From: Escherichia coli
GTDB taxonomy: Bacteria; Pseudomonadota; Gammaproteobacteria; Enterobacterales; Enterobacteriaceae
DNA length: 882 bases
Reading direction: 5' to 3' (one strand)
NCBI RefSeq assembly: GCF_003334765.1
Contig: NZ_QOWT01000095.1
Shown here: piece by piece, positions 1 to 41 of the stretch
Layout of the letters: each line of letters begins with the position of its first letter
Position numbering within the stretch: position 1 is the first letter of the stretch
The notes under the pieces: generated by a model
Database searches by the model: none
What the model saw: only the letters and a program-made list of their open reading frames with translations
What the model was told of the DNA's origin: nothing
Translations under genes and position numbers: made by a program

Positions 1-41
1 GATAAAGACAAAAATGGCCGCAGGCTGTTACCCCTGCGGCC
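1..41 (-). terminator. Rho-independent terminator of the ldr mRNA (copy 1)
   Basis: Perfect 9-bp GC-rich stem GGCCGCAGG (16-24) pairing with CCTGCGGCC (33-41), with an 8-nt loop. On the minus strand it is followed by ATTTTTGTCTTTATC (complement of 15..1). It lies about 50 nt downstream of the ldr stop codon. Confidence 0.72.

Follow-up and report, generated by a model that had tools for sequence, protein, structure and literature searches.

Each toxin unit of the tandem ldr/rdl array of Escherichia coli ends in a short G+C-rich hairpin that is very probably the Rho-independent (intrinsic) terminator of a single ldr toxin mRNA, and that acts in one direction. We examined this element in an 882-nt stretch of E. 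coli DNA (contig NZ_QOWT01000095.1 of RefSeq assembly GCF_003334765.1), hereafter the window, which carries two copies of it. The hairpin is built for termination on the strand that encodes the toxin, lies at a nearly constant distance from the ldr stop codon across five genera, and coincides in homologous copies with published mRNA 3′ ends.

The window is part of the E. coli ldr/rdl type I toxin–antitoxin array, an already characterised system. Two identical open reading frames on the minus strand, at 198..91 and 733..626 in both the RefSeq annotation and the open reading frame list, encode a 35-aa Ldr peptide (MTLAQFAMIFWHDLAAPILAGIITAAIVSWWRNRK, followed by a stop), which RefSeq labels as Ldr-family type I toxin. 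Database proteins related to it carry Pfam PF13940, and searches of NCBIfam with the 35-aa peptide and a 44-aa extended form returned no match. The longer form starts at an in-frame upstream ATG at window 223-225 (minus strand) and is annotated in some databases; since this ATG is missing from other genera and from ldrD, the 35-aa peptide is the conserved product. On the plus strand, opposite the 5′ leader of each toxin gene, lies a cis-antisense rdl antitoxin RNA with its own terminator (246..311 and 781..846), recognised by Rfam model RF01813 (rdlD) at 91.4 bits (gathering score 50). Separately, the ldr 5′ leader (window 196-348, minus strand) gives an Rfam match to sok/hok RF01794 that stops at the ldr AUG and stays below threshold, at 29 bits where the gathering score is 59 (E = 1.5e-4).

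The two units form a direct repeat of about 0.5 kb in the kdsA-chaA interval: positions 1-300 and 536-835 are 100% identical with a period of 535, and by eye the identity runs to the end of the window. K-12-type genomes have the array in the order kdsA> <ldr <ldr <ldr <chaA, and the window, at 99.9-100% identity to such arrays, corresponds to the two chaA-proximal units. The window was matched in all complete E. coli genomes of the collection; in the E. coli genome searches, the LDR unit had 26 to 31 matches that were plasmid-borne rather than chromosomal. Compared with the known E. coli LDR loci (ldrA, ldrB and ldrC between kdsA and chaA, and ldrD beside bcsG), the window has the same Ldr peptide, rdl RNA and terminator. 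Nothing essential differs, the window copies being the internal ones, whose U-rich tail begins with A. An assignment of the hairpin to the ldr toxin units, made earlier from the letters of the sequence, is thereby borne out by the RefSeq Ldr frames, the PF13940 relatives, the RF01813 rdl matches and the position of the hairpin 49 nt past the ldr stop codon.

Both the sequence itself and a consensus terminator scan reveal the minus-strand hairpin twice, as GGCCGCAGG-GGUAACAG-CCUGCGGCC at 41..16 and, identically, at 576..551. Its stem has nine perfect pairs, eight of them G-C, closed by an 8-nt loop; in copy 1, positions 41-33 pair with 24-16 and 32-25 form the loop. Directly downstream of each stem the scan reads AUUUUUGUCU, within a U-rich tail (AUUUUUGUCUUUAUC) at 1..15 for copy 1 and, as an identical repeat, at 536..550 for copy 2. 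The earlier note had placed the hairpin at 1-41 and 536-576; the perfect nine-pair stem and the minus-strand U-tract are as it described, whereas the stem-loop proper covers 16-41 and 551-576 and the remainder is tail. Its 535-bp spacing is exact, and a terminator scan, a check of the kind that it proposed, calls both hairpins on the minus strand only.

These features agree with the published definition of intrinsic terminators (PMC6061677): a stable G+C-rich stem-loop, a U-rich tract of 7-8 nt immediately 3′ of the stem (AUUUUUGU, with six U in the first eight nucleotides), and a position downstream of a gene on its sense strand, here 49 nt past the ldr stop codon in both copies. Canonical E. 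coli Rho-independent terminators likewise share the G+C-rich stem-loop, the U-rich tract, an upstream A-containing segment that pairs with the tail, and 3′ ends 9-11 nt past the stem; compared with them, the ldr loop is rather large at 8 nt, and the first tail position of the internal copies is A. The 26-nt hairpin alone folds at -20.0 kcal/mol, a 60-nt context at -24.6 kcal/mol (z = -2.8 against shuffles), and the stem keeps a pair probability of at least 0.995 within the fold of the full-length mRNA. Among 2000 dinucleotide shuffles of one 535-nt unit, 29 contained a perfect hairpin of at least 9 bp of any kind, and only two contained one with a T-rich tail on either strand, which rules out a chance hairpin. 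Given the scan hits, the fold energies and this rarity in shuffles, we regard the hairpin as a real feature.

The element extends well beyond the window. A genome scan yielded 36 ldr loci from Escherichia, Kluyvera, Pseudocitrobacter, Citrobacter and Salmonella; the alignment examined comprised 38 sequences. All 36 loci have a stem followed by a T-run, starting 50-56 nt past the stop codon in 35 of them; the remaining locus scored 64 nt, its protein match stopping four codons ahead of the stop codon. Of the stem cells in the 38-sequence alignment, 98.3% are paired, and sliding the partners lowers this share to 41-52%. Almost no variation occurs in the outer stem (GGCCGCAG/CUGCGGCC), which is therefore uninformative on covariation. 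Pairs of the inner stem vary, mostly from G-C to G·U, and true covariation is confined to one pair that changes from G-C to A-U in three sequences. Four of the T's in the tail are shared by all 38 sequences, and a GAA(A/C)C segment upstream can pair with the U-rich tail.

Single-copy loci in other genera carry the same terminator, so it predates the tandem arrangement and belongs to the ancestral ldr transcription unit; a tandem-array-specific adaptation was rejected on the same ground. Several of the surveyed loci have features of their own. One Pseudocitrobacter vendiensis ldr copy (L010, 901-1008) is interrupted by an in-frame stop (W to stop), with both its 3′ UTR and its terminator intact. 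An ldrD-like gene with its terminator also occurs on a 503-nt contig (L031, coverage 0.66) that is labelled Bacillus sp. and is most likely E. coli contamination of the assembly. Loci of the ldrD type lie tail-to-tail with bcsG, and the end of the ldrD mRNA adjoins the bcsG stop codon (L002, 696-735); by eye, the bcsG 3′-end flank recurs in reverse complement in Citrobacter, Salmonella, Kluyvera and Pseudocitrobacter (L009, L013-L015, L024-L028, L037, L038).

Alignment of these sequences also revealed a strand asymmetry. Wobble pairs in the stem comprise 29 G·U and no U·G when read in the ldr sense across the 38 sequences; on the antisense transcript each of them turns into an A·C mismatch, so that 97.6% of cells are paired in the sense direction and 90.8% in the antisense direction. 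The sense hairpin is the more stable of the two in 36 of 38 sequences, and the mean tail score (by a TransTermHP-type formula) is -4.8 sense versus -2.5 antisense. In the window, the plus-strand stem is followed by GGTTTCGGG, which has three T's, scores -2.2 and fails the terminator scan. The earlier claim that no T's follow on the plus strand holds in the sense that the tail is not of terminator grade, although three T's are present.

The hairpin could in principle be a bidirectional terminator that also halts plus-strand read-through, from kdsA or bcsG at the ends of the array and from rdl within it. Being a palindrome, it folds on the plus strand as well (-18.5 kcal/mol), ldr genes lie tail-to-tail with kdsA or bcsG, and the related Fst/par family does have a bidirectional terminator (PMC7472228). 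Apart from the poor plus-strand tail and the A·C mismatches, however, the mapped ends speak against this reading. In MG1655, a plus-strand 3′ end 'antisense to ldrA' (PMC10687069) peaks at 1269167 with R = 0.55, which is 50 nt beyond the hairpin and 10 nt past a second stem, itself followed by GUUUUCACCU, and corresponds to about window 91. Plus-strand RNA therefore passes the ldr hairpin. Neither a U-rich tail on both strands nor a common site for both strands' 3′ ends (at the ldrA copy of MG1655) was found, and we consider bidirectional action very unlikely. Unidirectionality, as the earlier note had it, is what the wobbles, the antisense tail and the plus-strand end all indicate.

The plus-strand tail that follows the second stem (GTTTTCACCT, plus strand, 82..91 and, in copy 2, 617-626) ends exactly at the ldr stop codon. 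The A-run matching this plus-strand T-run is found in the window and four other ldrA-C-type Escherichia sequences only (5/38). As for the source of the plus-strand RNA at ldrA, read-through from kdsA is our guess. For bcsG, the TRS tables list no called 3′ end. A further plus-strand 3′ end in the TRS map, at MG1655 1269429-1269438 (about window-equivalent 358), lies about 44 nt downstream of the rdlA terminator and suggests a longer Rdl read-through isoform that would cover the conserved 5′ segment of the ldr mRNA.

[quoted passage not shown] By contrast, the ldr terminator is unidirectional and lies at a long distance from the 5′ leader, which is the part that Rdl overlaps.

Published 3′-end data place transcript ends at this hairpin in homologous copies. 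The TRS 3′-end map of MG1655 (PMC10687069), in which an R value near 1 denotes low local read-through, lists a 'Primary ldrA' terminus at 1269083-1269092 on the minus strand (R = 1) and a 'Primary ldrD' terminus at 3699893/4 (R = 1 and 0.998), the latter preceded by UUUGCGCCCGGACCAGGCCGCAGGGGGGAAACUCUGCGGCCUUUUUCGUUCU and falling after GGCCGCAGGGGGGAAACUCUGCGGCCUUUUUCGUUCU. Placed on a K-12-type locus, the ldrA end at 1269083 is 9 nt past the stem, and the ldrD end 10-11 nt past it. These ends support terminator function for the homologous ldrA and ldrD copies, and by analogy with them the mRNA of copy 1 is predicted to end near window 6-8. The same tables call separate termini for rdlA, rdlB, rdlC and chaA, and none for ldrB or ldrC, whose terminator regions are identical over >250 nt, so that short reads are not assignable to one or the other. 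The 3′-end tables of Adams et al. 2021 include rdlD and no ldr end, and the SMRT-Cappable-seq supplements have no ldr entries. The 3′-end mapping put forward earlier as a check is thus answered for ldrA and ldrD, which end at the hairpin with no detectable local read-through, whereas no end is called for ldrB/ldrC. Equal termination and insulation at the two internal copies in the window we infer by analogy.

Steady-state 3′ ends alone do not distinguish termination from trimming, and the hairpin might instead be mainly an exonuclease stop, with transcription ending downstream in a Rho-dependent or diffuse manner and the RNA being trimmed back. Dar & Sorek (PMC6061677) found that Rho-dependent transcripts, too, end at stable stem-loops at steady state, and TRS and Term-seq record steady-state ends only. 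However, such protective stems come without a U-rich tail or an upstream A-tract (PMC6061677), whereas ldr has both four invariant T's in its tail and the upstream segment that pairs with the tail, and the mapped ldrA and ldrD ends retain a U-rich tail of 9-11 nt. We therefore hold trimming to be an improbable account of these ends. Under intrinsic termination, RNA polymerase transcribing the minus strand would pass the 35-codon ldr frame and an 86-nt 3′ UTR and pause on the U-tract; the nine-pair G+C-rich stem would then form, and the transcript would be released about 9-10 nt past the stem. The terminal stem-loop could subsequently also shield the mRNA from 3′ exonucleases.

How the terminator sits within the array was examined at both edges. 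On the kdsA side, homology to the internal units ends directly past the T-tract, the terminal copy reading GGCC-UUUUUUGUAUCC, which upholds the proposal that the hairpin marks the junction between repeat units. On the chaA side, homology ends near window 482. The intervening joint at 483..535, about 53 nt long, occurs between units only and is missing at both array edges, so the array is not a simple head-to-tail copy of its ends.

Palindromes can promote rearrangements. Together with the coincidence of the kdsA-side array edge and the end of the T-tract, this raises the alternative that the palindrome is a REP-like element or a recombination hotspot at the site of duplication, with no transcriptional role. 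Yet REP/BIME elements are dispersed in hundreds of copies per genome, and the 45-mer of this element has a median of two sites in an E. coli genome and nine at most, far below the numbers of a REP-like family. In other genera, ldr loci that occur singly place the hairpin just as far past the stop codon, and mRNA ends map to it. We consider this reading very unlikely and reject it.

Upstream of the toxin gene, conservation points to a putative ldr promoter at 389..418 (minus strand), with a -10-like TAGTAT at 394..389 that is conserved across 26 loci and a weak -35-like ATGAAG at 418..413; a sigma-70 scan of the window found no promoter. From these promoter-like elements, the ldr mRNA would start near 381 and be about 375 nt long. 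Its 3′ end would then lie about 125 nt before the candidate -35 of the next unit. The earlier picture of a toxin mRNA that ends just before the next unit begins is therefore right as to order and too tight as to distance. With the mRNA ending about 125 nt ahead of the next unit's promoter, each ldr/rdl unit would be an independent transcription unit.

The internal copies nevertheless have a weakened U-tract. Their tail starts with A (AUUUUUG; window 15 and 550), where the terminal ldrA copy has U, and their tail, scoring -3.73 against -5.36 in the terminal ldrA copy, ranks second weakest among the 38 sequences. The only other aligned locus without U at the first tail position is copy b of K. 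georgiana, which has C. The A-first form is common, with an exact 45-mer match in 3457 of 5425 records. Because the A-first U-tract is weak, some read-through at the internal copies is possible.

Between the stop codon and the terminator, the 3′ UTR contains a second conserved hairpin that the earlier note had overlooked, H2, at 48..81 on the minus strand (81-76 paired with 53-48, and 70-67 with 61-58) and, as an identical repeat, at 583..616. It is the stem that the plus-strand T-run follows, and its outer-stem cells are paired at 98.7% in the sense direction versus 80.7% in the antisense direction. The 35 nt directly ahead of the terminator (window 49-82), a segment conserved in five genera, can thus fold locally, yet when the whole predicted mRNA was folded, H2 opened and its nucleotides were taken up in pairs to the 5′ end and to the initiation region of ldr. 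The initiation region (189..225, minus strand) comprises a hairpin at 223-210, the SD at about 209-201 and the AUG at 198-196, and has its predicted partner at 54-82: in the single-sequence fold, 225-213 pair with 54-66, the SD region 207-201 with 67-73, and the AUG region 197-189 with 74-82. A near-invariant 5′ segment (GGCGCAAUGUUGC, 349..361, minus strand) is complementary to 3′-UTR positions 60-49, and the full-length consensus fold joins 361-356 to 49-54, leaving the terminator intact and outside the fold.

Several comparative results are consistent with this long-range pairing. It recurs in 34 of 35 loci when each is folded by itself, and its helices are 90-98% paired, against 31-57% when slid, in a fold that was derived from the very sequences scored and whose 5′ partners are constrained by coding and SD function. 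Both sides change at 214:65 (10 sequences), 189:82 (8) and 219:60 (2). For the initiation region paired with the 3′ UTR, the predicted duplex energy is -41.4 kcal/mol, compared with -21.2 ± 3.6 kcal/mol for shuffled sequences (0/500), and at most 3 of 500 shuffles reached the native value in 13 of 15 diverse loci. Competing local hairpins are conserved too, including an upstream hairpin with 11 exchanges between U-A and C-G. That hairpin, GUUGU-CAUU-ACAAC at window 210-223 (minus strand), lies just upstream of the SD and shows clean covariation, one pair being U-A in 11 sequences and C-G in 20.

A conserved 3′ segment complementary to the 5′ end, the SD region or both is the mark of hok-like mRNAs, and the comparative counts and predictions given here place one in ldr. 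This complementarity suggests a hok-like inert fold of the ldr mRNA. In the hok mRNA (tac-fbi) and in H. pylori aapA1, a 3′ segment is likewise complementary to the 5′ end, SD and start codon, as modelled here for ldr; the general principle is that of a closed, untranslatable full-length toxin mRNA (T1TAdb; PMC8594479). The ldr segment differs in lying upstream of an intact terminator hairpin, and the ldr fold is a predicted one. Reviews have suspected ldr of being hok-like (PMC4147584), and a 2021 review called the ldrD mechanism unknown (PMC8309996). We tentatively raise the possibility, which we would not yet favour, that the terminator clamps a conserved, closed, hok-like fold at its 3′ side: with the 3′ end fixed and exonucleases kept out by the terminator, the full-length toxin mRNA would stay stable yet untranslatable.

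Collectively, the hairpin is an ordinary, conserved element of a known kind in an already characterised locus, and it supports each ldr/rdl unit as a separate transcription unit with a defined, protected 3′ end. What our analysis adds is its strand specificity at the sequence level, with wobbles in the ldr sense only across five genera, and the weakened U-tract of the internal copies. A missing element in the translational control of ldr may reside in the adjacent 3′ UTR.
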